Positions 2,884 through 28,820 of a stretch of DNA of 40,870 bases are shown here, piece after piece. Origin of the DNA: Gemmatimonadota bacterium (GTDB lineage Bacteria; JBHIER01; G020348925); NCBI GenBank assembly GCA_020348925.1, contig CP070758.1, positions 1,729,160 through 1,770,029 of the forward strand. The letters are read 5' to 3'. Each line of letters starts with the position of its first letter. Positions within the stretch are counted from its first letter, which is position 1. A model generated the notes under the pieces. It saw only the letters and a program-made list of their open reading frames with translations. It did not search any database and was not told the origin of the DNA. The translations under genes and the position numbers were made by a program.

Positions 2884-3357
2884 ATGCAAGAACGATTGAT
2901 GGAGATATTGTTAAAACTGCTTAGAGAGATTGATGCCTCGGGGAATGACATGATTCGGTTGAAGGAGCTGTCGGATAAACTGAAGGGGCAGGGAATTTCT
3001 GAGTTGGAACTCGATGAGGCCCTGTCGTGGCTCACGGATCGGCTCCAGGCACAGACGTATGGTGCCACCGAACTGTTTTCCTCTGCTGGATCTGTACGTA
3101 TACTGCATCCGGTGGAACGGATGGTGTTCACACCTGAGGCATACGGCTACCTGCTCCAATTGGAGCACGCCCGTTTGATCGATAAAGATCAGATGGAAGC
3201 CGTGATCGACAGAGCCATGTCAAAAGGCTCACGCGAAATAACGCTCACTGATATTAAAATGATTACTGCGGCAGTTGTATTCAGCCCGGAAAACTCGGAT
3301 TGGATGACACCTGCAAGTGTGTTATCCGATGATGACACAAAAATGAAGGTTCAATAG
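2884..3357 (+). CDS. smg: DUF494/Smg family protein
   Basis: E-L-D-E-A-L-S-W-L, RILHPVE and EAYGYLLQL motifs; lies directly upstream of topA, the usual context for this family. Confidence 0.85.
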   Translation: MQERLMEILLKLLREIDASGNDMIRLKELSDKLKGQGISELELDEALSWLTDRLQAQTYGATELFSSAGSVRILHPVERMVFTPEAYGYLLQLEHARLIDKDQMEAVIDRAMSKGSREITLTDIKMITAAVVFSPENSDWMTPASVLSDDDTKMKVQ

Positions 3358-3375
3358 AGTTACTCACAGGGAATC

Positions 3376-4430
3376 ATGGGACGAACAGCTTTCAAATCAT
3401 TAATGATCGTGGAATCTCCAGCAAAGGCGAAGACCATCGAAAAATTCTTAGGTGGTGAATTTGAAGTCAAGGCCTGCATGGGGCATGTCAAAGATCTGCC
3501 GGAACGAAAATTGGGAATCAGCCTGATCAACCATTTTGAACCAACGTACGTTATTGTGCGAGGAAAAGCAAAAATTTTGCAGGACTTGCGAAAAGCTGCC
3601 AAAGATGCAAAAAACATCCTATTGGCTACTGATCCGGATCGGGAGGGTGAAGCCATCGCGTGGCATGTTGCTCAAGAAATTTCACCCGGTACCGACGGGA
3701 AAAGGCGGGTTCTGTTCAATGAAATCACTGAGAAGGCGGTTAAAAATGCGGTCAACAATCCGTCGGTAATCGACGAAAAAAAGGTGAATGCCCAGCAGGC
3801 CCGCAGGATCATGGATAGATTGGTGGGATATCAAGTCAGTCCGCTTTTGTGGAAGACTGTAGCCAAGGGTCTGAGTGCTGGCCGCGTACAATCTGTTGCC
3901 TTGCGGCTTGTGTGCGAACGTGAACAGAGCATTGCTTCTTTTATCTCTGAGGAGTATTGGTCTGTTCTTGCAGAGGTGAAAGGTGCCAGAAGTGACGCGT
4001 TTCAAGCAAAGCTCGTGTCTCTTCACGGTGAAAAAGTGGCCATACCGAACGAGAAGACGGCACAGGAGATAGTGGATGATCTCAAGGGGAAAACCTTCTC
4101 CGTTGAAGATATTAAAAAGAAAAAGGTCAAAAAAAATCCGCAACCACCGTTTATTACGAGCACCTTGCAACAGGAGGCAGCGCGCAAGCTTCGTTTCTCC
4201 CCCCAGAGAACGATGGTCCTTGCCCAGCAGCTCTATGAGGGTATTGATGTAGGCAATGGGGGCCTGGTTGGCCTGATCACATATATGCGAACTGATTCGA
4301 CCAACATATCACCGCTGGCCCAAAATGAGGCTGCCAAGTTCATCGCCCAACGCTATGGAGAAAAGTTCCTTCCAGCAAAACCAAACGTTTACCGTAAAAA
4401 ATCTCGCCGTGCCCAGGAAGCCCATGAAGC
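3376..4430 (+). CDS. topA: Type IA DNA topoisomerase I (partial, interrupted by the assembly gap)
   Basis: IVESPAKAKTI, LATDPDREGEAI, SAGRVQS, TSTLQQEA, LITYMRTDS (catalytic Tyr) and AQEAHE. Confidence 0.97.
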
Positions 4431-4530
4431 NNNNNNNNNNNNNNNNNNNNNNNNNNNNNNNNNNNNNNNNNNNNNNNNNNNNNNNNNNNNNNNNNNNNNN
4501 NNNNNNNNNNNNNNNNNNNNNNNNNNNNNN
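4431..4530. other. Scaffold gap (100 N, true size unknown)
   Basis: Run of N. The sequence after the gap does not resume topA in any frame I could recognise. Confidence 0.99.
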
Positions 4531-4878
4531 CCCTGAATCACATACTCTTTTTTGTTGACACCTTCATCATCGTGTTCTATATTATCGAACGGAAATTCTT
4601 CTAATTTGCTGAAAATAAAAAATTGGTCATCACCATCATATATGATTGAGCCGCATAGTGTAGGACATGTCGCAACTCTTGAGTGAAAGAAAATCTGTAG
4701 CACGGAGATGTCTCTAACTTATCACCTGTCAAGCCATAAGGGGTTTTCTGTATTGATTCGATACGGTGATGAAAGAGTATCCATTCAAGCAATTGATGTG
4801 TAGTCGCATATGCAACTATCAGTTGCAAAGAGTGTCCCCTTAAACCCAAGAAAACTTTCATCAACAGGAGGTAATAAG

Positions 4879-5625
4879 ATGACATGGATTATTTCGATCG
4901 CATTTGCCGCCTGCGGATTGTTGGTCGTCGGCATCGCTTTGCATAAGGTTTTCCGAAGCCTCGATCCATCGAAGATCTCAGGCTATCGTCCCTGCGCGGG
5001 TGGTTGGTGGGAAGCCAAGCTGAACAATTGTAGTTCAGGCCTCCTTAAGGTTCCCCAGCAGCCGGTGAATACCTACACGAACGTGGCGTACGTTGCTGTC
5101 GGCTTTTTTCTCCTGTTCAAAATCAACACACTCCCATCATACGTACTTTCTCTGACCTTACTCTACCTCTGCGTCGGATCGGCTCTGTACCACGCCATGT
5201 CGACACGCTGGGCGGGCAGTCTTGATGTAAGTGGCATGTACGCTCTTTTCTCTGCGATGACAGCTTACATTATATGTAAGTATATTGGTTTAGACAATTC
5301 GCTCGTAGCCCTCATTATGTTTATGGTCGCCGTACTATGTGGTTATCTTTTGAGATACAGATATCGAGGCAATATGTCGCTCAAAATTGGTATATTTTTG
5401 GTGCTCACATATCTCTTCACCATTTTGAGCATGCTGCAGAACAACAGATCGCTGGTAAGCGGCTATTTGATTGCTTCCTTCGCCATGTTTGCCTTAGCAT
5501 ACCTCGCATGGATATTGGATAAGGCGAGGAACTTCCCACTCAAACGATTTGGACACGGACTCTGGCACGTCTTAACCGCGGCAGCGATCTCTGTTTTGTT
5601 TTATGGCTCCTATCTTTCAGAATAA
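4879..5625 (+). CDS. CREST-superfamily (ceramidase-like) multi-pass membrane hydrolase
   Basis: QPVNTYTN, GSALYHA (SxxxH), a conserved D in DVSGM and GHGLWH (HxxxH); several hydrophobic helices; AGGAGG RBS before ATG 4879. Confidence 0.8.
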   Translation: MTWIISIAFAACGLLVVGIALHKVFRSLDPSKISGYRPCAGGWWEAKLNNCSSGLLKVPQQPVNTYTNVAYVAVGFFLLFKINTLPSYVLSLTLLYLCVGSALYHAMSTRWAGSLDVSGMYALFSAMTAYIICKYIGLDNSLVALIMFMVAVLCGYLLRYRYRGNMSLKIGIFLVLTYLFTILSMLQNNRSLVSGYLIASFAMFALAYLAWILDKARNFPLKRFGHGLWHVLTAAAISVLFYGSYLSE

Positions 5626-15762: not shown

Positions 15763-17586
15763 ATGTATGCATTGAAAAAAACATCTTTTTACATCTGTCT
15801 CTTTTCACTCCTCCTTGCATGTGTACCTTCTTCACAGGGTGCTGATCTTGATACGAAGAAATTCATGCCGGTCGATGAAGTACGACCCGGTATGAGCGGA
15901 TACGGGCTGACGGTCTTCTCCGGGATCGAGATTGACACGTTTCAGGCTGACATTATCGGTGTTCTCAAAAAAGTCACTCCAAAGGGGGATCTTATTCTGG
16001 CCCGATTGAGCGGTGGCCCTTTGGAAAAAACAGGCGTCCCTGCGGGCGTCAGCGGCAGTCCTGTCTATATCGAAGGCAGGTTGATCGGCGCAGCCGCTTT
16101 CGGCTGGCTCTTCGCCAAGGAACCCATTGCCGGCATCACCCCCATTGGTGAGATGCTCGATCTGTGGGCGCTCCCCTTCGAGCCGAAAGATCATCGAGAG
16201 CCAGGCTCCCTGGGATTCGACATGTCCGGAGAGAGTCCCATCGAAACCATTCCCGTCCCAGAGGATTTCCTCGCAGAATCACGGATTGCGGTTCCACCTG
16301 AAGGGACTTTTCTGAGACAGTGGGGTGCACCTTTGGCCGTGGCCGGTTTTGACGATCGGCTCATTGAATCGATGACGCCAATCTTCGAGCGATTCGGCCT
16401 CACTCCGGTTCAGGGGGGCGCCACCTCGGACGAAAAGGACGCACCCCCTCTTGCACCGGGATCGGCAGTGACGGCCCAATTGGTTCGGGGTGACGCCAGC
16501 ATCAGTGCTGTCGGTACGGTGACCTATCGGGAGGACGACAGAGTGCTCGCCTTCGGCCATCCCCTCTTCCGTGCAGGCGGGATCGATCTGCCCATGACCG
16601 GGGGCGTCGTGCACACCGTTCTCGCCTCCCAGCAGCGCTCCTTCAAGATGGCCTCCCCCACAGCGTTGTGCGGCTCCTTTCGGCAGGACAGAAGGACCGG
16701 TGCAGCGGGACAGGTCGGCCTCGATCCGAAAATGATCCCCTGCGATATAGAAATCATCGGTCACCATTCCGGGCCGTCCGAGCGATACACCTTCGAGCTG
16801 GCCGACGACCCCCTCTTCACCCCCAACCTCCTGGGTTGGACCGCGACGAACGCGCTTCTCGCCAACGGCCAACTCGTGGGCAGAACAACAGTCAAAGTCC
16901 GGGCGACCTTTTCACTGAAGCATCAGACTCCGATCACTCTTGAAAATTTCTATTCCGGCGATCTGACGGCACTGGTGGCTGCCTTGGGGGCAGCTTCCCC
17001 CCTCGCCCTGCTCATGAACAACCCTTTTGAAGAGCTGGATATCGACAACATCTCGCTCACCCTCTGGCCCGAGGAGGAATTACGGTTTGCCGTTATCGAG
17101 GGTCTGCGCACGGATAAAGACTCGGTCAAGCCAGGGGAATCTTTGAATATAACCATTATCATCAAACCGTACCTCGGTTCTGCCATAGTGAAAGAGATGA
17201 CCTTGACGATCCCCGAGGATACACCTGACGGCGTCGTATATATACTTGCCGCGGATGCAAAGACGATCGCAGCCCGGGAAAAATCGAGAGCACCCTACAA
17301 CTATCGACCTGAAAACCTAAAGCAGCTCATCGCACTCTTAGAGGAGCAAGTGCGGAACAATGAAATTGTCGTCTCCAGCTACAAGCCGTTTCACGGAATT
17401 ACAATAAAAGGTGAAGAGCTTCCCTCACCACCAACCTCTCTCCTGAGCGTCATGACCTCCTCCAAGGAGAAGGGAGAAACAGGACCGACGAGGGGCATCA
17501 TCCTCGATGAAGAGCGAATAATGACGGACCACTTCATTGTCGGTCATCAAACCTTAACCCTCACAGTTGACCAGAAGGCTAAGTAG
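15763..17586 (+). CDS. SpoIVB-like peptidase S55 domain protein (secreted)
   Basis: PGMSGYGLTVFSG, AGVSGSPVYIEGRLIGA, GITPI and AFGHP motifs; N-terminal signal peptide. Confidence 0.88.
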   Translation: MYALKKTSFYICLFSLLLACVPSSQGADLDTKKFMPVDEVRPGMSGYGLTVFSGIEIDTFQADIIGVLKKVTPKGDLILARLSGGPLEKTGVPAGVSGSPVYIEGRLIGAAAFGWLFAKEPIAGITPIGEMLDLWALPFEPKDHREPGSLGFDMSGESPIETIPVPEDFLAESRIAVPPEGTFLRQWGAPLAVAGFDDRLIESMTPIFERFGLTPVQGGATSDEKDAPPLAPGSAVTAQLVRGDASISAVGTVTYREDDRVLAFGHPLFRAGGIDLPMTGGVVHTVLASQQRSFKMASPTALCGSFRQDRRTGAAGQVGLDPKMIPCDIEIIGHHSGPSERYTFELADDPLFTPNLLGWTATNALLANGQLVGRTTVKVRATFSLKHQTPITLENFYSGDLTALVAALGAASPLALLMNNPFEELDIDNISLTLWPEEELRFAVIEGLRTDKDSVKPGESLNITIIIKPYLGSAIVKEMTLTIPEDTPDGVVYILAADAKTIAAREKSRAPYNYRPENLKQLIALLEEQVRNNEIVVSSYKPFHGITIKGEELPSPPTSLLSVMTSSKEKGETGPTRGIILDEERIMTDHFIVGHQTLTLTVDQKAK

Positions 17587-17602
17587 CTCATTTTTCTTCT
17601 TT

Positions 17603-19558
17603 ATGAAAGACACAGAATCCGGCGCTCTACACAATCTTAAGAATAATGAGACAAAAACTTACGAGGAATTAGGCCTCAAGGCAGGCGTCGAGATTCACCA
17701 GCAGCTTCTCACGGACCGAAAGCTCTTCTGCCGGTGTCCGGCGGGTATCTATACAGAGGATCACGACGGTGAGGTGCTTCGTCACATGCGTCCGACCCTT
17801 TCCGAGCTGGGTGAATACGACGGCACGGCCCTGATGGAATTCAAAACGAAAAAGCAGGTCCTTTATCTCTTGCACAGAGATTCGGTGTGCACCTATGAAA
17901 TGGATGACACCCCGCCGTTTCTTGTCAACCAGCAGGCCCTCGACATCGCCATCGAAATCGCCCTCCTTCTGGGGTGTACCATCATTGACGAGATGCATGT
18001 CGCCCGCAAACAGTATCTGGACGGCAGCATTCCCACAGGATTTCAACGGACAGCAATTGTCGGTGTCGGAGGATCTCTGCCCTATAATGGGCGAACGATC
18101 GGGATCCGGCAGGTGAACCTCGAGGAGGACGCCTGCCGTGAGGTGAACGATTGCGGTCACACCATTACCTTCAGGACAGACAGGCTCGGAATGCCGTTAG
18201 GGGAAGTGATCACTGAGGCTGAAATGCATACTCCTGAAGACGTAGCCGGCGTTATCGAACAGCTGGGTCGTCTCATGAGGGTTACCGGAAAAATACGGCG
18301 GGGCATCGGGTCCGTGCGCCAGGATGTCAATGTCAGTATCACCGGTGGTACCCGTGTCGAGATCAAAGGGGTCCCGCAAATCCCCTGGGTGGCCCCGTTG
18401 GTGCACAACGAGGCTTGGCGACAGAAAGCACTGCTGGAGCTGCGGGAGGAACTTCGCCGCCGGGGGATCTCATCCGGGACACTCCGCTACGAGATTCATA
18501 AACTGTCAGAGGTGTTCAGGCAGAGCCGATACCCTCCGCTCCGAAAAGCGGTGGAGAATGGGGAGACCATTCGCGGCATAAAAATCTGCGGCATCCGCGG
18601 TCTGTTAAACTTCCCGGTTCAACCAGGAATAACGTTTGCCGACGAGATTGCCGGCCGGGTGCGGGTTATCGCCTGTCTGGATACACCCCCGATACTCATA
18701 AACACTGATGATTTTCCTAAGTACGACGGCCAGGAGCGCGAACTCACTGCTATCCGGGAAACGTTTCACTTGGGCATCCCGGATGCGGTCCTCATCTGTC
18801 ACGGTTCAGACAGGGACACGAACACGGCGGTGGACGAGATTCGGCTTCGGATAGCAGATGCCATTGAAGGCGTACCGAATGAGACACGGCAGGCTTTCTC
18901 CAACGGCACCACCGATTTTGAACGCATTCTCCCTGGGCCAGACCGGATGTATCCGGACACCGACCATCCGCCGGTAAAAATAACCGAGTACCGGGTACGT
19001 AGAATCTTGCGGAGAGTTCCTGAGAAACCTTGGGTGCGAGGGGACAGTTATCTTCGTATGGGCGTATCCGAACACATTGTGAAGGAAGTGGCCGAATCTC
19101 CCCGGGCCACATTTTTCGATAGAGCTGTGCGAGATCTCGATCTTGGATCAAAGCTGATTGCGGAACTTCTTGTGGGGAAGATGAAAGCCTTGCGCCGGTC
19201 CGGGATTCCAGTCGAGGCCATCACCGACGAAAAGTTGTTCGATTTTTTTTCTGAGATGGCCCGTGGGGGGGTCTATCGAGAAGGATCAGAGTCAATTCTC
19301 ACCACTATGGCTTGGAATCCTGATCTCTCGGTAAAAGAGATTTTGGAGAAATTGGATATGACTCCGTGGTCCGAGGAGGCTTTCAGGGATCTCGTTGCCG
19401 ACGTCCTCTCCCGTCATCCTGACGAGGGGGGGAAAAATCCTTGTTCGCACGACAAGTTTGTGAGAATCGTAATGGGCGAGGTGATGAGAGAAGTTCGAGG
19501 GAGGTTTTCTGGGCGGGGTGCCGCCGATCTTGTGAGAGAAATAATGGAGGAGGAATGA
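17603..19558 (+). CDS. gatE: Glu-tRNA(Gln) amidotransferase subunit E
   Basis: GLKAGVEIHQQL..KLFCRCP, RPTLSELGEYD, EMDDTPP, DGSIPTGFQRT, RRGIGSVRQDVNVSI and PGPDRMYPDTD, plus the large central insertion typical of GatE rather than GatB. Confidence 0.93.
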   Translation: MKDTESGALHNLKNNETKTYEELGLKAGVEIHQQLLTDRKLFCRCPAGIYTEDHDGEVLRHMRPTLSELGEYDGTALMEFKTKKQVLYLLHRDSVCTYEMDDTPPFLVNQQALDIAIEIALLLGCTIIDEMHVARKQYLDGSIPTGFQRTAIVGVGGSLPYNGRTIGIRQVNLEEDACREVNDCGHTITFRTDRLGMPLGEVITEAEMHTPEDVAGVIEQLGRLMRVTGKIRRGIGSVRQDVNVSITGGTRVEIKGVPQIPWVAPLVHNEAWRQKALLELREELRRRGISSGTLRYEIHKLSEVFRQSRYPPLRKAVENGETIRGIKICGIRGLLNFPVQPGITFADEIAGRVRVIACLDTPPILINTDDFPKYDGQERELTAIRETFHLGIPDAVLICHGSDRDTNTAVDEIRLRIADAIEGVPNETRQAFSNGTTDFERILPGPDRMYPDTDHPPVKITEYRVRRILRRVPEKPWVRGDSYLRMGVSEHIVKEVAESPRATFFDRAVRDLDLGSKLIAELLVGKMKALRRSGIPVEAITDEKLFDFFSEMARGGVYREGSESILTTMAWNPDLSVKEILEKLDMTPWSEEAFRDLVADVLSRHPDEGGKNPCSHDKFVRIVMGEVMREVRGRFSGRGAADLVREIMEEE

Positions 19559-20943
19559 ATACATCCGATACCCTGAAGGGCTACAAAGGCAGTGCCAAGG
19601 CCAAGCTCAAAGAGATGGGCGTGAGGGTCTGGAGCGACGTGGTCGTCAGGACGGCCAAAGGTGAATTTAAGGGGGTTATCCTTCCCCGGAGTGAGACTGA
19701 GGACGATCGACACGTCGTGCTCAAGCTTCATTCCGGTTACAACGTGGGGGTCCGCGTCGACACCATCCAATCGATCGAAGAACTGGGTTACAAGGAAGCC
19801 CATTACAAGATCCCCGAACGCGACTTCCCCCAGGATGCCGCCAAACCCAACGTCACACTTTTGGGCACGGGGGGAACCATCGCCAGTCGCTTGGATTACC
19901 GGACCGGGGCCGTCATTCCGGCCTTCACCCCTGGGGAATTGTACGGAGCCGTGCCTGAGCTGGCCGATATCTGCAACCTCAAGACCATAAAGCTCTACGG
20001 TGTCTTCAGCGAAAATATGGGGCCGGAGCAATATGTCGCCACCGCTCGGGCCATTGAAAAAGAGATCGAGGCAGGTGTTGACGGGATCGTTATCGGCCAC
20101 GGCACGGATACGATGCACCACACATCGGCCATTCTCTCCTTCATGGTGCAGAACTCTCCCGTCCCCATCGTCCTGGTCGGTTCCCAGCGCTCCAGTGACC
20201 GCCCCTCCAGTGATGCCGCCCTGAATCTCATCAATGCCGTCCGCTCGGCGGCTTACGGCGATATTGCCGAGGTGGTCGTATGCATGTTCGGACCGACGAG
20301 TGATGAATACGATCTTCTGCATCGCGGTACCCGCGTCCGTAAAATGCACTCCAGCTACCGCAGCACCTTCCGCACCATCGGCGACATCCCCTTGGCCATG
20401 GTCTACCCCGACCGGTTTACCTATCTTACCTCCGATTACAATATGCGACGGAAAGATCGCCTTGTACAAGTCGATACGGCCTTTGAGGAGAAAGTGGCCA
20501 TTGTCTATTATTACCCCAACATGCAGCCCGATATCATTGAATCACTCATCGATCATCAGTACAAAGGAATCGTCATCGCCGGCACCGGTCTCGGCCACGT
20601 CAACAAGCCTCTCTATAAACCTCTCAAAAAGGCTATTGATAGCGGGATCTCCGTCGTGATGACGGTGCAGACCTTATGGGGTTACGTCCAGATGTACGTC
20701 TACGACACCGGACGCGATCTCCTGGACATCGGCGTTATCCCCTTGGAAAATATGCTGCCCGAAACGGCCTACATGAAGCTCTGCTGGGTCTTGGGGCACA
20801 CTACGGAACACGAAAAGGTTCGGGAGATGATGCTTACCCCTATCAACCATGAGACAACCGAGCGGGAACCCCACAACGGCTACCTCATCTTACAGGGAGG
20901 TATTCCGGAGGTGGACACCTTTGTATCGTCACTCAGGAAATAG
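19555..20943 (+). CDS. gatD: Glu-tRNA(Gln) amidotransferase subunit D
   Basis: GatD N-terminal domain (VLKLHSGYNVGV); asparaginase-fold TGGTIAS and HGTDTM; GSQRSSDRPSSD and RKMHSSYRSTF; ATGA overlap with the gatE stop. Confidence 0.95.
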   Translation: MNTSDTLKGYKGSAKAKLKEMGVRVWSDVVVRTAKGEFKGVILPRSETEDDRHVVLKLHSGYNVGVRVDTIQSIEELGYKEAHYKIPERDFPQDAAKPNVTLLGTGGTIASRLDYRTGAVIPAFTPGELYGAVPELADICNLKTIKLYGVFSENMGPEQYVATARAIEKEIEAGVDGIVIGHGTDTMHHTSAILSFMVQNSPVPIVLVGSQRSSDRPSSDAALNLINAVRSAAYGDIAEVVVCMFGPTSDEYDLLHRGTRVRKMHSSYRSTFRTIGDIPLAMVYPDRFTYLTSDYNMRRKDRLVQVDTAFEEKVAIVYYYPNMQPDIIESLIDHQYKGIVIAGTGLGHVNKPLYKPLKKAIDSGISVVMTVQTLWGYVQMYVYDTGRDLLDIGVIPLENMLPETAYMKLCWVLGHTTEHEKVREMMLTPINHETTEREPHNGYLILQGGIPEVDTFVSSLRK

Positions 20944-21670: not shown

Positions 21671-22519
21671 TTGAGCAACGACAAGGATAAGATAAAGAAA
21701 CAAGACGTACTACTGGGCATCAAGCACGGGAGAACGTTATCCCAGATTCTGTTTCTGGGTCTGACCGTCTGGGTAGCCTACCGCATGCTGAGCGGCGTGC
21801 GGGGGGCGACCATCGAGAAGTACTGTCCCTTCGGCGGCGTCGAGACGCTGTTCCCCTGGCTCAACAAGACCGGAACGCTGTGCAGCCTGTCCACGATGAA
21901 TATCTCTGTGCTTGCCGGTGTTCTCCTCATCACGCTTCTTTACAAACGCGCCTTCTGCAGCCACATCTGCCCGGTGGGCGCTCTGTCCGAGTGGATTGCT
22001 CTTATCGGCCGCCGTTACATCATAAAATCCCGGCGTGTGCCCTCGAAAGTAGACCGCCCACTGAAGTGGCTCAAATATCCTGTGCTCGCACTCATCGTCT
22101 GGGGCACAGTCCGTGTCGGGGAACTGATCTTTCGTGAAGTCGATCCGTACTATGTCCTCTTCACCCTCGGTCGCGGCCACGGGATTGCGGAGGGCGTCAT
22201 AGGGATCGGCGGTTACAGCCTCGTCATCATCCTTATCCTATTCGGCCTCAACGTCGTGCTTCCACTGGCCTTCTGCAAGTATCTCTGTCCCATGGCGGCC
22301 TGTCTCAACCCTCTGTCCAGAATAGGATTGATTCGCGTTCGACGAAACCCGGACACGTGCATTGACTGCAGACGGTGCGATGTGACCTGTCAGTGGGGGG
22401 TCAAGGTGTCGGACGTGGGCAGTGTTGGAAGCGCAGAATGCAGCAACTGCCAGGACTGCGTGCGCAGCTGCCCGGTACCGGATACGCTCACATTGAGTTT
22501 CGGAAGGAGTCGATCATGA
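21671..22519 (+). CDS. Polytopic membrane 4Fe-4S protein (NapH/MauN/YccM-like)
   Basis: FCSHICPVG and FCKYLCPM motifs plus two C-terminal CxxCxxCxxxC motifs; TM helices. Confidence 0.85.
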   Translation: MSNDKDKIKKQDVLLGIKHGRTLSQILFLGLTVWVAYRMLSGVRGATIEKYCPFGGVETLFPWLNKTGTLCSLSTMNISVLAGVLLITLLYKRAFCSHICPVGALSEWIALIGRRYIIKSRRVPSKVDRPLKWLKYPVLALIVWGTVRVGELIFREVDPYYVLFTLGRGHGIAEGVIGIGGYSLVIILILFGLNVVLPLAFCKYLCPMAACLNPLSRIGLIRVRRNPDTCIDCRRCDVTCQWGVKVSDVGSVGSAECSNCQDCVRSCPVPDTLTLSFGRSRS

Positions 22520-22887
22520 AGATCCCGCTCGGATGGCTGACCCCGTTGGTTCTTGTGTCCTTCATCGGCGTCATTCTCGCCGCCAACCTCTGGGAGCTGC
22601 CCACCCAACAGCATCAGTTCGGGGAGACCTCCGCGAAAACTCAAGAGATCCAGATGATTGTGGACGGCCTCCGCTGCCGCGGGACCTCGAACTTCTTTTT
22701 GAGCAAACTGTCCGATGTGGACGGACTGATATCGGTCAATACATTCGTGCAGGAGCACCGCGCCGTTATCGTCTTCGATCCAGCCCGGATCTCGGTGGAG
22801 GAGATCCGGAGGATGATCGAAGCTCCGGTTCGCCTCCGGAACGGCCGCATCGTCCAGCCCTTCGCTGTGCGAGAAGTCTGGGAATAA
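22516..22887 (+). CDS. Membrane-anchored heavy-metal-associated (HMA)-like domain protein
   Basis: N-terminal TM segment, then VDGLRCRGTS...DGLISV...AVIVFDPARISVEEI; ATGA overlap with the upstream gene. Confidence 0.7.
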   Translation: MKIPLGWLTPLVLVSFIGVILAANLWELPTQQHQFGETSAKTQEIQMIVDGLRCRGTSNFFLSKLSDVDGLISVNTFVQEHRAVIVFDPARISVEEIRRMIEAPVRLRNGRIVQPFAVREVWE

Positions 22888-23059: not shown

Positions 23060-23907
23060 ATGAAAGCCCTGCTTCTCTTCTTTGCATGTTGCTCGGCCGC
23101 CTATGCAACAAACAGTGATCTGTCACTCGAGATCAACTCCTCTCCCGATTCGGCACAAGTCTATGTAAACTACCAGTTGAAGGGCACGACACCTCTCTCA
23201 CTCAGCTCGCTTCCGCAATGAAATTTCGCGCTCACCTTAGAGAAAGGGAGATACGAACCGTTTCAAATGCAATTCTCTGAATCACATGGGAAATATCGGA
23301 TGGGAATTGATTTAATCAAACCATTGATCGCAAGGGACATAGAGAAGAACACAAAACACTTCAGATTAACAAAAAGAATCGTTTCGGGCATAAACTTTGC
23401 GCTCACCATAGGCGGTATTCTGTTCAGTCGAAGGGCATCCATTGAGTTTGAAGATTACGAGAAAGCCCTCTTTTTTAACAGCGATCCATCAACGTATGTC
23501 GAATCCAATGTTGACAGGTCGAACGTCTTCATAATCTCAGGCACAGAAACAAGTTTTATTCCATCTGCTCTGAATTTTTTCCTCTTTCCCGCAATAATAC
23601 TTATACGGGGAACCATGCCTATTATTTCGATAAAAAATACGTGCAGTCCAGGCAGACGGATTGTTTCATCAGTGCGGTTGTTCATCTGATAGGTGCATTG
23701 GTCTTGAATGGCGAACTCAATAAAATCGAAGAAGATGAAAAGAGCGCTCTCTGGAAAAGCGATTTTTCCGGGATGAACAGGAAAAAGAGTTTTCGGGCAG
23801 CTTCCAATATCATGTTTGCGTTGGGTGCCATTGACTTACTGCATGCGCTATACCTGCATCTCAGGAAACCGGAGGTACAAGACTACATCGAATTTGAACC
23901 TTATTAG
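23060..23907 (+). pseudogene. PEGA domain-containing protein, disrupted
   Basis: AGGAGG RBS, signal peptide and PEGA motif (INSSPDSAQVYVN..KGTTPLSL..LPQ*NFALTLEKGRY) with an in-frame TGA at 23219-23221; probable frameshift near 23600-23640. Confidence 0.7.
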
Positions 23908-24107: not shown

Positions 24108-24136
24108 TTGATATTTCAATTCCTTTGATTTAATAT
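24108..24136 (+). promoter_or_regulatory. Putative sigma70 promoter of the sdhA operon
   Basis: TTGATA-N17-TAATAT about 150 nt upstream of the start. Confidence 0.5.
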
Positions 24137-24284: not shown

Positions 24285-26003
24285 GTGGGAGAATGTCTTA
24301 TTAAACAAGTGCTCGTTATCGGAGGAGGGCTGGCTGGTTTGCGGGCGGCTATCGCCGCCCACGATGCCGGATGCGACGCAGCCGTGCTCTCCAAGGTGTA
24401 CCCCATCCGCTCCCATTCGGGCGCGGCCCAGGGCGGGATAAACGCCGCTCTGGCCAATCATCCTGAAGGTAAAGACGATTCCTGGGAGCGCCACGCCTTC
24501 GATACCATCAAGGGCTCGGACTATTTGGCCGACCAACCGCGAGTTGAAATTCTGACCCAGGAGGCACCGGAACGGGTCCTGGAAATGGAGCACTGGGGCA
24601 CATACTTCAGCCGCACTCCCGATGGACACATCGCCCAGCGTCCCTTCGGCGGAGCCGGTTTTCCCCGCACCTGCTATGCCGCCGACCGGACCGGCCATCA
24701 CCTGCTTCACACCCTGTGGGAACAATGCCTCAAGAGGAATATAACCCTTTACAACGAATGGCTTATAACCTGTCTCGTTGTTCACGGAGGACGGGTCTTC
24801 GGTGCGATCTCTCTCCATATCCCGACCGGCCAATTACAGGCTTTTGGCGCTCATGCGATTATCATCGCCGGTGGCGGTCACGGCCGAATCTTCGCCAAAT
24901 CGACCAACGCCTACATCAACACCGGCAGCGCCACGGCTGCCGCCTTTCGGGCGGGGGTACCTTTAGAGGACATGGAGTTCGTCCAGTTTCACCCCACCAC
25001 CCTGTACGGCACCAATATCCTTATCACAGAAGGTGTGCGAGGTGAAGGGGGCATTCTCGTGAATGCCAAGGGGGAGCGCTTTATGGAGCGGTACGCATCC
25101 ACAGTGATGGAGCTGGGTCCCCGTGATATCGTCGCCAGAGGCATTCAGACTGAGATTGACGAAGGCAGAGGATTTAAAGGGAAATATGGGAGTTACGTGC
25201 ACCTTGACGTGCACCACCTGGGCGCCGACGTCATCAAGACGAGGCTGCCGGGCATCCGACAGATCGCCATGGACTTTGCCGGAGTCGATCCCATCGAAGC
25301 GCCCATTCCCATTCAACCCGGCCAGCACTATTCCATGGGCGGCCTGGCCTGCGACGAGAACGGTCAGACACCTATCGAGGGACTCTTTGCCGTCGGCGAA
25401 TGCTCCTGCGTCAGCGTCCACGGGGCCAACAGGTTGGGCGGCAACTCCCTCCTGGAGACCATTATCTTCGGAAAGCGAGCCGGGGAGCAGGCCGCGAATA
25501 TAGCAAAAAATGCGGACAAGCCAGGCTCTGAATCTGTTTTGAACGATGTGCTCCGTGAGCAGGAAGCCGATATCAAAAGCCTGAAAGCTCGGACAAAAGG
25601 GGAGCGCCAGATCACGATCCGCCGACGAATGCAGGCTGAGATGACTGAGAAGGTGGGTCTTTTCAGAGAAGAAAAATCCCTCACGAAGACTGTGGAAAAA
25701 CTGGCCCAGCTCAAGGAGGAATACAAGAAGGTTATTATCGACAACAAGGGTGATGCTTTCAATTACGATTTAATGGATGCACTGGAACTGGGCGGTATGC
25801 TGGAACTGGCTGAGGTGACGGCTCAGACTGCGTTGAGGCGGAGGGAGTGCCGGGGCAGCCACTGGCGAACAGACCATCCCAGTCGAAAGGACGAGGAGTG
25901 GATGAAACACAGCCTGGCTTTTTTCAATCCGGAGGGACCACCACGCATTGAATATGAAGATGTTCTCATTACCACATACGAGCCCACCGTGCGAAAATAT
26001 TAG
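24285..26003 (+). CDS. sdhA: Succinate dehydrogenase/fumarate reductase flavoprotein subunit
   Basis: GGGLAGL, RSHSGAAQGG (covalent-FAD His), EFVQFHPT, TEGVRGEGG, HYSMGG and HGANRLGGNSL. Confidence 0.95.
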   Translation: MGECLIKQVLVIGGGLAGLRAAIAAHDAGCDAAVLSKVYPIRSHSGAAQGGINAALANHPEGKDDSWERHAFDTIKGSDYLADQPRVEILTQEAPERVLEMEHWGTYFSRTPDGHIAQRPFGGAGFPRTCYAADRTGHHLLHTLWEQCLKRNITLYNEWLITCLVVHGGRVFGAISLHIPTGQLQAFGAHAIIIAGGGHGRIFAKSTNAYINTGSATAAAFRAGVPLEDMEFVQFHPTTLYGTNILITEGVRGEGGILVNAKGERFMERYASTVMELGPRDIVARGIQTEIDEGRGFKGKYGSYVHLDVHHLGADVIKTRLPGIRQIAMDFAGVDPIEAPIPIQPGQHYSMGGLACDENGQTPIEGLFAVGECSCVSVHGANRLGGNSLLETIIFGKRAGEQAANIAKNADKPGSESVLNDVLREQEADIKSLKARTKGERQITIRRRMQAEMTEKVGLFREEKSLTKTVEKLAQLKEEYKKVIIDNKGDAFNYDLMDALELGGMLELAEVTAQTALRRRECRGSHWRTDHPSRKDEEWMKHSLAFFNPEGPPRIEYEDVLITTYEPTVRKY

Positions 26004-26048
26004 AGGAAATACAGTGCCCACCTTTACAAGCAAGAAAGGAGGAACATC

Positions 26049-26669
26049 ATGAGCACCATCAAAGTAAACATCATCTTCCACAGCTTTTACGGCCATATCT
26101 ACCGCATGGCCGAGGCCATCGCCGAAGGCGCCAGGGAGATTGAGGGCAGTGAGGTGAACCTTTTTCAAGTCCCCGAGACGCTTTCTGAGGACGTACTGGC
26201 CAAAATGGGTGCCTTGGAACCGAAAAAAACCTTTGCCCACATTCCAGAGGCGACGATGGATCATCTTGAAAAGGCTCACGCCATCATCCTCGGCACACCC
26301 ACCAGGTTCGGCAATATGACGGCACAGATGCGGGCCTTTCTCGACAGAACCGGTCAACTCTGGGCAAAGGGGACTCTCGACGGCAAGGTCGGCAGTGTCT
26401 TCACCTCCAGCAACACTCAACACGGGGGGCAGGAAACCACAATCGTCAGTACGCACTTTACACTGCTTCATCAGGGCATGATTATTGTCGGTCTACCCTA
26501 CACCTTTCAGGGGCAGTCGCGCATCGATGAAATCACTGGTGGCTCCCCCTACGGTGCGTCGACAATAGCCGGTAGTCGTGGTGACCGCATGCCCAGTGAG
26601 AACGAGCTGGATGCAGCGCGTTTTCAGGGAAAGCGTGTGGCCGAAATCGCGAAGCGCCTCTTCGGATAA
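26049..26669 (+). CDS. wrbA: NAD(P)H:quinone oxidoreductase WrbA
   Basis: SFYGHI, GTPTRFGNM, QHGGQETT and GGSPYGASTIAG; AGGAGG RBS. Confidence 0.95.
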   Translation: MSTIKVNIIFHSFYGHIYRMAEAIAEGAREIEGSEVNLFQVPETLSEDVLAKMGALEPKKTFAHIPEATMDHLEKAHAIILGTPTRFGNMTAQMRAFLDRTGQLWAKGTLDGKVGSVFTSSNTQHGGQETTIVSTHFTLLHQGMIIVGLPYTFQGQSRIDEITGGSPYGASTIAGSRGDRMPSENELDAARFQGKRVAEIAKRLFG

Positions 26670-26682
26670 AAAGGATCCGGGG

Positions 26683-27414
26683 ATGGCTGCGAAGAATTTT
26701 ACCTTTCGCATTCGACGGTTCGATCCCGAACGTGACAAGGAACCTCATTTCGAGGGGTATTCTTTAGATGTTTCCGAGGACATGACGGTCCTCGAATCAC
26801 TCCTGAGAATTCAGACAGAACAGGACGGTACTCTATCTTTCCGCTACGCCTGCCGGGGTGCCGTGTGCGGCTCCTGCGCCATGGTCATCAACGGCCGCAT
26901 TGACCTGGCCTGCCGCAGCCAGGTGCAGGTTCTCAACCAGGAGACAATCACCATCGAGCCATTACCTCATCTTTCGGTGATCAAAGACCTTGTGGTGGAT
27001 ATGGATCTGTTCTTGAGCAAGAACCAAACCGTTCAGCCGTGGTTGCAGCCAATTGGACATGAGCCTGAGCGGGAGAATTTGGTCGATCCGGTACAATGGG
27101 CCGAGGCGGAACCTTATACCAACTGCATCCTGTGCGCCTCATGCTACGGCGTCTGTCCGAAGGCCGGACAGGATCCGGACTATCTCGGACCCGCGGCTCT
27201 GGCCAAGCACTACCGCTTTCTGGCGGACATAAGAGACAAGGCGGACGAAACGCGCCTTGCACTCGTCAATAACGACCACGGAATCTGGGGTTGTGATATG
27301 GTCTGGAACTGTGTGGAGATATGTCCCAAGGGTGTTCCGCCCACCCAGGGTATCGGTAAAACCCGCGCTCGCATACGACGGGCCCAACGGGATCAAGAGA
27401 AGGGACACACGTAA
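26683..27414 (+). CDS. sdhB: Succinate dehydrogenase/fumarate reductase iron-sulfur subunit
   Basis: CRGAVCGSC...C (2Fe-2S), CILCASCYGVCP (4Fe-4S) and CDMVWNCVEICP (3Fe-4S type). Confidence 0.93.
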   Translation: MAAKNFTFRIRRFDPERDKEPHFEGYSLDVSEDMTVLESLLRIQTEQDGTLSFRYACRGAVCGSCAMVINGRIDLACRSQVQVLNQETITIEPLPHLSVIKDLVVDMDLFLSKNQTVQPWLQPIGHEPERENLVDPVQWAEAEPYTNCILCASCYGVCPKAGQDPDYLGPAALAKHYRFLADIRDKADETRLALVNNDHGIWGCDMVWNCVEICPKGVPPTQGIGKTRARIRRAQRDQEKGHT

Positions 27415-27437
27415 TACGAAACACGCAAGAGAAAACC

Positions 27438-28820
27438 ATGAGAACCGAACGAGACGTTATAGGAGAGATCCAAATCCCAGACAAAGCCTTGTGGGGCGCG
27501 CAGACCCAGAGGGCTATTGAGAATTTTCCCATCTCCGGCCTCCGCTTCGGACGGAGGTTCATTCAGGCTCTGGGTTTGGTGAAAAGAGCGTGCGCCCTGG
27601 CAAACAGCGACCTGAGCCTGCTGGATAAAGAATTGGGAGAAGCTATCACACGAGCGTGCGATGAGGTTATTGAAGGGAAGTGGGACGACCAGTTTCCCCT
27701 GGACATTTTCCAGACAGGCTCCGGTACATCGACCAACATGAACGCCAACGAGGTCATCGCCAACCGGGCGATACAATTGCTGGGGGGTACGGTCGGCACG
27801 AAGAATCCGGTCCACCCCAACGATCATGTCAACATGAGTCAATCCAGCAACGACTTTTTTCCCACGACCATTCATGTGGCGGCAGTCCTGGCCCTGCGCG
27901 ACGAGCTCATTCCGGCCCTGGAACATCTGCGCGATGCCCTTTCTGAAAAGGCCAGGGCTTTCGACCATATCGTCAAGGCGGGCCGCACGCACCTTCAGGA
28001 TGCCACGCCGATCCGCCTCGGACAGGAGTTCGGTGGCTACAGAACCCAGATCGAAAAATCCATCGAGCGGGCATACAGCGCGATCGACGCTTCGAATGAA
28101 CTGCCCTTGGGCGGTACGGCCGTAGGGACTGGGGTTAACCGCCTGAAAAAGTTTCCTCAAAAAGCCATAGACTACCTGAACGAATCTCTTGGTACGAACT
28201 TTTACGAAGCCGTAAACCACATCGAGGCCAACGCCGCCCGCGACTCCATTGTGGAAGCTTCGGGTCAACTGAAGACTATCGCCGTGAGCTTGACGAAAAT
28301 TGCCAACGATATCCGCTGGCTCGGCTCAGGTCCCCGCAGCGGCCTTGGGGAGCTGCGCCTCCCTGCCTTACAGCCCGGCTCGTCCATCATGCCCGGCAAG
28401 GTCAATCCGGTCATGGGTGAGGCCCTAATTATGGTGGCCGCCCAGGTCATCAGCCACGATGCTGCTATAACCCAGGGAGGATTGGATAGCCACTTCGAGT
28501 TGAACACCATGATGCCGCTCATAGCGTACAATCTCATCAGCTCCATTGAATGGATGGCCAAGGTCCTGAGGGCTTTTACCGACAGATGCGTCGTTGGCCT
28601 CGAGGCGGACGAGGAGCGCTGCCGCGAGACCGTGGAGCGAAATCTGGCCCTGGCCACGGCTTTGGCTCCGGTCATCGGCTACGACAGGGCCGCTGACATC
28701 AGCAAGGAGGCTTATCGGAGTGGTCGAACGGTACGGGAGGTGGCTCTGGATTGGAAGGTGCTTCCTCCTGAAGAACTGGACACGCTGCTCGATCCGTCCA
28801 AGATGACGGAACCCGATTAA
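27438..28820 (+). CDS. fumC: Class II fumarate hydratase
   Basis: WGAQTQRA, QTGSGTSTNMN, HPNDHVN, GRTHLQDA and GSSIMPGKVNP. Confidence 0.93.
   Translation: MRTERDVIGEIQIPDKALWGAQTQRAIENFPISGLRFGRRFIQALGLVKRACALANSDLSLLDKELGEAITRACDEVIEGKWDDQFPLDIFQTGSGTSTNMNANEVIANRAIQLLGGTVGTKNPVHPNDHVNMSQSSNDFFPTTIHVAAVLALRDELIPALEHLRDALSEKARAFDHIVKAGRTHLQDATPIRLGQEFGGYRTQIEKSIERAYSAIDASNELPLGGTAVGTGVNRLKKFPQKAIDYLNESLGTNFYEAVNHIEANAARDSIVEASGQLKTIAVSLTKIANDIRWLGSGPRSGLGELRLPALQPGSSIMPGKVNPVMGEALIMVAAQVISHDAAITQGGLDSHFELNTMMPLIAYNLISSIEWMAKVLRAFTDRCVVGLEADEERCRETVERNLALATALAPVIGYDRAADISKEAYRSGRTVREVALDWKVLPPEELDTLLDPSKMTEPD

Follow-up and report, generated by a model that had tools for sequence, protein, structure and literature searches.

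Organization of the operon

The window analysed here comprises 40,870 nucleotides of contig CP070758.1 (positions 1,729,160 to 1,770,029, forward strand) from a Gemmatimonadota bacterium (assembly GCA_020348925.1). It contains a plus-strand operon in which the genes for a flavoprotein (SdhA) and an iron-sulfur (Fe-S) subunit (SdhB) of the succinate dehydrogenase/fumarate reductase type are separated by wrbA and followed by fumC. The tightly spaced sdhA-wrbA-sdhB-fumC order, with gaps of 45, 13 and 23 bp, is as the first-pass annotation of the window had described it, as is the lack of any anchor gene from a promoter-like site to the end of fumC. The analysis below places the SdhAB pair outside membrane complex II and in a wider, apparently soluble SdhAB-lyase family, of which the arrangement with WrbA represents a variant found in one genome.

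The sdhA gene (24285..26003, 572 residues, GTG start) was assigned by motif alignment and by its score of 770 bits on TIGR01812 (sdhA/frdA, cut-off 567). Filling what proves to be a variable slot, wrbA (26049..26669, 206 residues) encodes a member of the flavin mononucleotide (FMN) NAD(P)H:quinone oxidoreductase family (310 on NF002999, cut-off 141; 295 on TIGR01755, cut-off 132.5), while sdhB (26683..27414, 243 residues) was assigned by alignment and scores 267 on NF004616 (cut-off 228). The lyase gene (27438..28820, 460 residues) falls under the cut-off of the fumC model TIGR00979 (598 against 665) and over that of the aspartase model NF008909 (569 against 510). FumC is nevertheless the better call for its product, since the 21 top PDB matches are class II fumarases and the predicted protein has the QTGSGT motif seen in class II fumarases (a contrast drawn from these alignments); the GSSIMPGKVNP signature is also present.

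All four frames, the catalytic residues and the cluster ligands are intact, ribosome-binding sites in the operon are strong, and the GC content at third codon positions (GC3) of wrbA is 0.66, against 0.64-0.69 for the adjoining operon genes. Contigs from another sample (X2) span sdhA-wrbA and wrbA-sdhB-fumC, and one from a second study (X3) spans wrbA-sdhB; the gene order is therefore no assembly artefact. Upstream lies a sigma-70-like promoter match (TTGATA-17-TAATAT, 24108..24136, plus strand, 9/12 matches) surrounded by AT-rich inverted repeats. The match is weak, with 8 such sites in the region compared to 4.5 ± 2.3 expected by chance, and the inverted repeats 5' of the operon gave no clear regulon.

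An SdhAB pair with no anchor gene found

The source genome, a single contig of 5.04 Mb that is 96.3% complete and interrupted by 205 gaps, each of 100 N, has just one sdhB and one full-length sdhA. Genome-wide, none of PF01127, TIGR02046, PF02300, TIGR02968 and PF02313 has a match at cut-off (TIGR02970 was not among the profiles), and two profiles made from relatives' anchors returned nothing under an E value of 0.5. The 13 CCG-domain matches were considered as SdhE-type anchors and rejected, since each belongs to an Hdr-type cluster or to a large fused oxidoreductase distant from the operon. Thus no orphan sdhC or frdC was found elsewhere in this 96.3% complete genome. The same holds for relatives: 20 of the 21 genomes with anchorless loci, mostly incomplete assemblies, have no PF01127 match, the one exception having a separate canonical sdhCDAB, while such a match is present in 9/9 other genomes, picked mostly as anchored controls.

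Alignment of SdhA to 1NEK_A and 6LUM_A identifies the covalent-FAD (flavin adenine dinucleotide) residue His44 within RSHSGAAQGG, together with Gln49, and a complete dicarboxylate site (His236, Thr248/Glu249, Arg280, His348, Arg383). SdhB has 11 Cys in the standard 2Fe-2S, 4Fe-4S and 3Fe-4S pattern but departs from solved SdhBs where these meet the membrane subunits' quinone site: CPKAGQD replaces CPSYWWN, the SxWWN quinone-site loop, CDM replaces CHT so that the His of that motif is gone, and the C-terminal tail is polar. Tails with at least 3 hydrophobic residues occur in 0/31 anchorless and 27/31 anchored sequences, which are kin and so not independent. The tail is a better marker than the loop because some anchored relatives also lack the loop. 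The missing anchor, together with an SdhB devoid of loop and hydrophobic tail, suggests that SdhAB is soluble in the cell.

In an SdhA tree (87 rows, quick method) the protein falls in a clade with 98% support, composed of members with one small anchor gene and two anchorless subclades with 100% support each. Subclade I is bacterial, uniting the source genome with Anaerolineae. Subclade II is mostly methanogens, and a Methanolobus row (L098) that branches apart is counted with it. The single-anchor members are a second genome of the same family (G001, the sole other genome of that family in the relatives search), a Thermodesulfobacteriota genome and Methanoperedens. Within this clade the split in SdhB tails holds: the hydrophobic tail is kept in 5/5 single-anchor members, and its loss runs through both anchorless subclades. 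In subclade I the lyase gene adjoining sdhB encodes FumC, whereas most of its subclade II counterparts are aspartase-like. The family is kept in bacteria and archaea, yet its spread is patchy, with 3 of 401 sampled genomes in the class of genome G041, and SdhA resembles Anaerolineae copies more closely (74-79%) than it does that of G001 (60%).

Separately, the sister enzymes of G001, Methanoperedens and others seem to have one anchor gene of ~100 residues (L142:3092-3391, L037:5050-5349, L038:4822-5136; also L143, L145, L146), possibly forming a homodimeric anchor. At 13 further loci (L042, L045, L048-L054, L056, L058, L060, L063) a Nitrospira-type sdhA has no sdhB in the fetched flanks.

A variable slot between sdhA and sdhB

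No conserved sdhA-wrbA-sdhB order was found among the relatives. wrbA lies beside sdhA or sdhB at none of 98 related loci (80 genome loci, 15 metagenome loci and 3 from the class sample). The position it occupies was compared across the 14 subclade I loci with both genes and an intact junction, which leaves out L139, a broken relative whose junction is deleted, and L126-L128, L130, L131, L137, L138 and L140, whose contigs lack sdhA. At seven loci sdhA and sdhB are directly adjacent (L033, L034, L035, L129, L132, L136, L152). The other seven carry five kinds of insert: WrbA in the source genome, a ferredoxin-NAD reductase-like enzyme (L032, L151), a dihydrolipoamide-dehydrogenase-like enzyme (L133 and L134, which are almost identical), a three-gene insert of flavin reductase, HEAT protein and methyltransferase in that order (L150), and a metallohydrolase of the metallo-beta-lactamase fold (L135). 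In four of the five kinds the first gene thus encodes a flavin oxidoreductase from a family that uses NAD(P)H. A ferredoxin-reductase-like gene also precedes sdhB in L130 and L137, there preceded in turn by a D-Ala-ligase-like gene instead of sdhA. The SdhB tree does not resolve the order of the inserts, and none of the subclade II loci has one.

WrbA itself is ordinary, a flavodoxin-like FMN fold at 72-76% to many other WrbAs and matching PDB 2R96 at E 1e-55, and no extension or fusion was found in it. E. coli WrbA is described as moving electron pairs without a stable semiquinone and as having a small-molecule pocket (PMC3430622), chemistry that would be a poor match to an Fe-S wire. These data do not support the proposal that WrbA has replaced the anchor as a conserved feature: all 98 related loci lack it in the slot, and half of the close loci have nothing there. 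WrbA is likely one replaceable partner among several.

Gene neighbourhoods and host metabolism

Donor-type enzymes, defined as the four slot flavoenzymes plus a rubredoxin-fused pyruvate-oxidase-like enzyme and a rubredoxin-fused FMN hydroxy-acid dehydrogenase, occur in the fetched flanks of 19/37 anchorless loci compared to 0/18 anchored loci. The two rubredoxin-fused types flank L035 (2440-4218 and 8136-9311), L066 (3969-5969) and seven Methanobacterium-type archaeal loci (for example L062:5016-6272), and L033 has a close homologue of the thiamine diphosphate (ThDP) enzyme, cut by the contig end. Genes for catalase, superoxide reductase (SOR), FprA, rubrerythrin, ferritin or peroxiredoxin were found near 0/37 anchorless loci, among which coxA and a cytochrome c gene occur at one locus each. 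Truncation accounts for part of such misses, since nine of the subclade I contigs are shorter than 2.5 kb. Individual neighbours include a succinate-semialdehyde-dehydrogenase-like (SSADH-like) and ThDP-enzyme pair upstream in L046, for which no tie of the ThDP enzyme to 2-oxoglutarate decarboxylase was established, and, directly 3' of sdhB in L034 (5521-6312), a gene for a membrane protein with three helices and a cytochrome c domain, a possible alternative partner. Another cytochrome c gene lies upstream in the broken relative L139.

The source genome encodes citrate synthase, aconitase, an isocitrate-dehydrogenase-like enzyme, malate dehydrogenase and SucC of the tricarboxylic acid (TCA) cycle, as well as 2-oxoacid:ferredoxin oxidoreductase and malic enzyme. 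As an aside, a TCA operon is headed by a eukaryote-like citrate synthase (4,238,120-4,239,487 of the source contig). Rubredoxin, FprA-like, SOR and catalase genes cluster away from the sdhA operon, and a rubrerythrin-like gene is also present. Searches for haem-copper oxidase (COX1) and cytochrome bd oxidase found neither in this genome, and COX1 is present in just 1/5 close hosts.

Searches of the source genome for MqnA/D, MqnE and MenB found none, while menA is over cut-off inside the nuo operon (4,210,918-4,211,835; L155:1416-2336, minus strand), making menaquinone by salvage possible. Loss of the anchor because hosts lack quinones is rejected as a general cause, as it fits neither this genome, which has MenA, nor 6/8 close genomes. 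The idea does fit subclade II, where 0/14 genomes have a MenA-like match, or MenB or MqnE over cut-off, MqnE being over cut-off in just 4/9 control genomes. Elsewhere in the source genome a prenyltransferase (1,678,335-1,679,171) matches DGGGP-synthase-like models best, under cut-off.

A second SdhA/TfrA-like flavoprotein, which lacks the covalent His but is accompanied by an Fe-S partner, lies at the end of an Hdr cluster (1,547,562-1,550,183; L114:1563-4184) and is a candidate soluble reductase. Such a flavoprotein is present in 12/19 genomes searched, and in each of the 4 whose surroundings were inspected (the source genome and 3/3 others) it adjoins Hdr-type genes.

Proposed function and alternatives

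The direction of reaction, solubility in the cell and any functional link with WrbA are inferred. The best explanation, to which we give an about even chance of being right, is that SdhAB is a soluble fumarate reductase fed through small soluble carriers by interchangeable NAD(P)H-oxidising donors. FumC would supply fumarate from malate, and the aspartase-like lyase of subclade II would be another source of fumarate. Electrons from NAD(P)H would pass by way of a diaphorase to a small quinone, free flavin or rubredoxin, and from that carrier to the 3Fe-4S cluster of SdhB, on to FAD and finally to fumarate, so that the enzyme would act as an electron sink regenerating NAD(P)+ without a proton gradient. 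WrbA would take part indirectly by way of a diffusible carrier and not as a bound subunit, because its E. coli counterpart, as reported in PMC3430622, transfers electrons in pairs. For one-electron transfer, the ferredoxin-reductase-like slot protein of L151 and the rubredoxin-fused FMN enzyme of L062 would be better candidates. Fumarate reduction is favoured because the neighbours are of the donor type and not O2-reducing terminals, the hosts mostly lack oxidases, and anoxic succinate oxidation has no evident acceptor: the potential of succinate is given as +30 mV and that of menaquinone as -80 mV (PMC3570798), and without an anchor the acceptor is not obvious. Of the soluble NAD(P)H-linked fumarate reductase that the first-pass annotation had put forward, solubility fares well and the NAD(P)H link is plausible, since other NAD(P)H flavoenzymes fill the slot in relatives; the dedicated role for WrbA is not supported. 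Of the two observations that the annotation had named as refuting it, the absence of wrbA from this position in relatives was made, and an orphan anchor gene was not found.

Several observations weigh against a fumarate reductase fed in this way. SdhA has both the covalent His and the Gln that is described as marking succinate-oxidising enzymes (PMC10308238). Half of the close loci have an empty slot, and the metallohydrolase, HEAT protein and methyltransferase among the inserts suggest that the position may be a hot spot for insertion. The operon contains no carrier gene, the source genome already has a class I fumarase in addition to the FumC encoded here, and in L136 cytochrome c oxidase genes (3030-5093) lie directly 3' of fumC. 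A separate fumarate reductase may also already exist in the hosts, given that the second SdhA-like flavoprotein is found in 8/8 subclade I genomes tested and that TfrB is over cut-off in 8/14 subclade II genomes.

In the main alternative, the enzyme would oxidise succinate under exposure to oxygen or other oxidants and reduce rubredoxin or small quinones, which FprA, rubrerythrin or O2 would then re-oxidise. The covalent His and the Gln marker of SdhA accord with this direction. Class II fumarases are oxygen-stable, and the second fumarase in the operon would then remove fumarate, with WrbA a stress gene co-regulated in parallel. The TCA genes would make SdhAB the obvious enzyme for the succinate step, the rubredoxin, FprA-like, SOR, rubrerythrin-like and catalase genes are at hand in the genome, and the upstream pair in L046 and the oxidase genes in L136 would fit as well. 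This alternative comes close because most hosts have another candidate reductase, but we hold it to be less likely. The defence genes that reduce peroxide or O2 are absent near the anchorless loci, the NAD(P)H enzymes cannot take electrons from succinate, no terminal oxidase was found in the source genome, and the Gln marker is shared with PTH_1491, a Pelotomaculum enzyme assigned as a reductase. The Gln/Glu marker was discarded as a decisive test of direction.

The remaining alternatives are far less probable. Tight spacing, strong ribosome-binding sites, matching GC3 and the presence of other NAD(P)H enzymes in the same slot of relatives are what would be expected if WrbA were bound to SdhB as a dedicated subunit, replacing the anchor and passing NAD(P)H electrons directly. 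We consider this improbable in view of the absence of wrbA from the slot at all related loci, the two wrbA matches of G001, which lie elsewhere in a genome whose sdhCA is anchored, the lack of any WrbA extension or fusion, and the two-electron, small-molecule chemistry described for WrbA (PMC3430622). An anchor hidden in an assembly gap or belonging to an unknown family would make this an ordinary membrane complex II, in keeping with the incomplete, gapped genome, the menaquinone that MenA may indicate and the 3-helix cytochrome c gene of L034; such an anchor would have to be missed in 20/21 related genomes and is hard to reconcile with the loss of the SdhB tail in both anchorless subclades, leaving only a slim chance. 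Slightly less probable again is a horizontally acquired, dispensable or decaying cassette of no important role here. Its patchy spread, the greater similarity of SdhA to Anaerolineae copies, the broken relative L139 and a broken gene upstream of the operon would suit that origin, whereas the intact frames, catalytic residues and cluster ligands and the retention of the family across bacteria and archaea argue against it.

Taking the preferred reading of a carrier-fed fumarate reductase further, we tentatively suggest, with less confidence than in the reading itself, that these enzymes constitute a quinone-free family of sediment bacteria and methanogens. Having shed the anchor and the hydrophobic SdhB tail, they would have gained a plug-in electron port to which at least 6 kinds of donor were recruited: WrbA, ferredoxin-reductase-like, dihydrolipoamide-dehydrogenase-like and flavin reductase enzymes, and the rubredoxin-fused pyruvate and hydroxy-acid dehydrogenases. 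If so, such a port would give NAD(P)H:, pyruvate: or lactate:fumarate oxidoreductase chains that operate without a quinone.

Comparison with known systems

The closest precedent is SDH2 of Pelotomaculum thermopropionicum (PTH_1491-1490; Kosaka et al. 2023), described as an anchorless, cytoplasmic FrdAB and proposed to be NADH-fed (PMC10308238). Like the present operon it has SdhA and SdhB without a membrane subunit, and PTH_1491, which was not among the rows of our tree, has the RSHSGAAQGG, QFHPTTLYGTN and QHYSMGG motifs of this SdhA when its sequence in Table S3 is compared by eye. SDH2 adjoins an FrhB-like gene, whereas the neighbours here are FumC and the variable flavoenzyme slot. NADH:fumarate activity in the soluble fraction, from crude extract only, was assigned to SDH2, and its NADH-oxidising partner is given as unknown (PMC10308238). 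The slot genes name candidates for that role. Table S3 of the same paper lists as clade 4 anchorless pairs in Methanobacterium lacus, Methanosarcina thermophila and Methanohalophilus, a clade with 0 occurrences in the article text. Those of M. lacus and M. thermophila look like relatives of the present pair, which would make direction and donor testable in culture.

With complex II (E. coli SdhCDAB, 1NEK; M. smegmatis Sdh2, 6LUM; E. coli FrdABCD) the pair shares the covalent-FAD flavoprotein, dicarboxylate site and three-cluster Fe-S subunit, but it lacks a C/D, B-type or E-type anchor, the quinone-site residues and the hydrophobic SdhB tail. The thiol:fumarate reductase TfrAB of methanogens is likewise a two-subunit soluble enzyme for the fumarate/succinate step; this SdhB, in contrast, has no CCG domains, and both Tfr models are under cut-off (SdhB 155 against 385 for TfrB, SdhA 485 against 718 for TfrA). 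Syntrophobacter fumaroxidans sdhAB-1 and sdhAB-2, described as uncharacterised, are also anchorless. Of these, sdhAB-1 lacks the 4Fe-4S and 3Fe-4S motifs, while sdhAB-2 adjoins a predicted fumarase gene and occurs with citrate synthase and aconitase (PMC3570798, PMC5947623). E. coli WrbA belongs to the same family over curated cut-offs as the WrbA of the operon, the difference being gene position only, and no connection between WrbA and complex II genes was found in the literature searched.

The earlier description of the system as possibly undescribed was too strong, given the anchorless NADH-fed SdhAB already proposed for Pelotomaculum (PMC10308238). The concept of an anchorless soluble SdhAB has thus been proposed once before, while the variable-slot SdhAB-lyase family is uncharacterised. 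In the open-access literature we found no description of the sdhA-slot-sdhB-fumC family, the variable slot or the tail loss, although the supplement of PMC10308238 may list more members, and the soluble homologues listed in a 2023 review are flavocytochrome c, Osm1 and aspartate oxidase only (PMC10238741). Genome annotations count an sdhA and sdhB pair as a respiratory complex II or take it to prove that the TCA cycle is closed; the present family indicates that such a pair may be soluble and detached from the membrane.

Other features of the window

The window also encodes archaeal-type Glu-tRNA(Gln) amidotransferase subunits gatE and gatD (17567-20943, plus strand), both over cut-off; a tblastn search of the rest of this bacterial genome with GatE returned no homologue of GatB. 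Further along, 3' of an antitoxin and PIN-domain pair, a NapH/MauN-like membrane polyferredoxin gene is followed by one for a heavy-metal-associated domain protein (21671-22887, plus strand). These two genes lie 1.4 kb from the operon, and none of the related loci has them nearby. Immediately 5' of the operon, a low-GC PEGA-domain gene is divided into three pieces by stops (23060-23907, plus strand).

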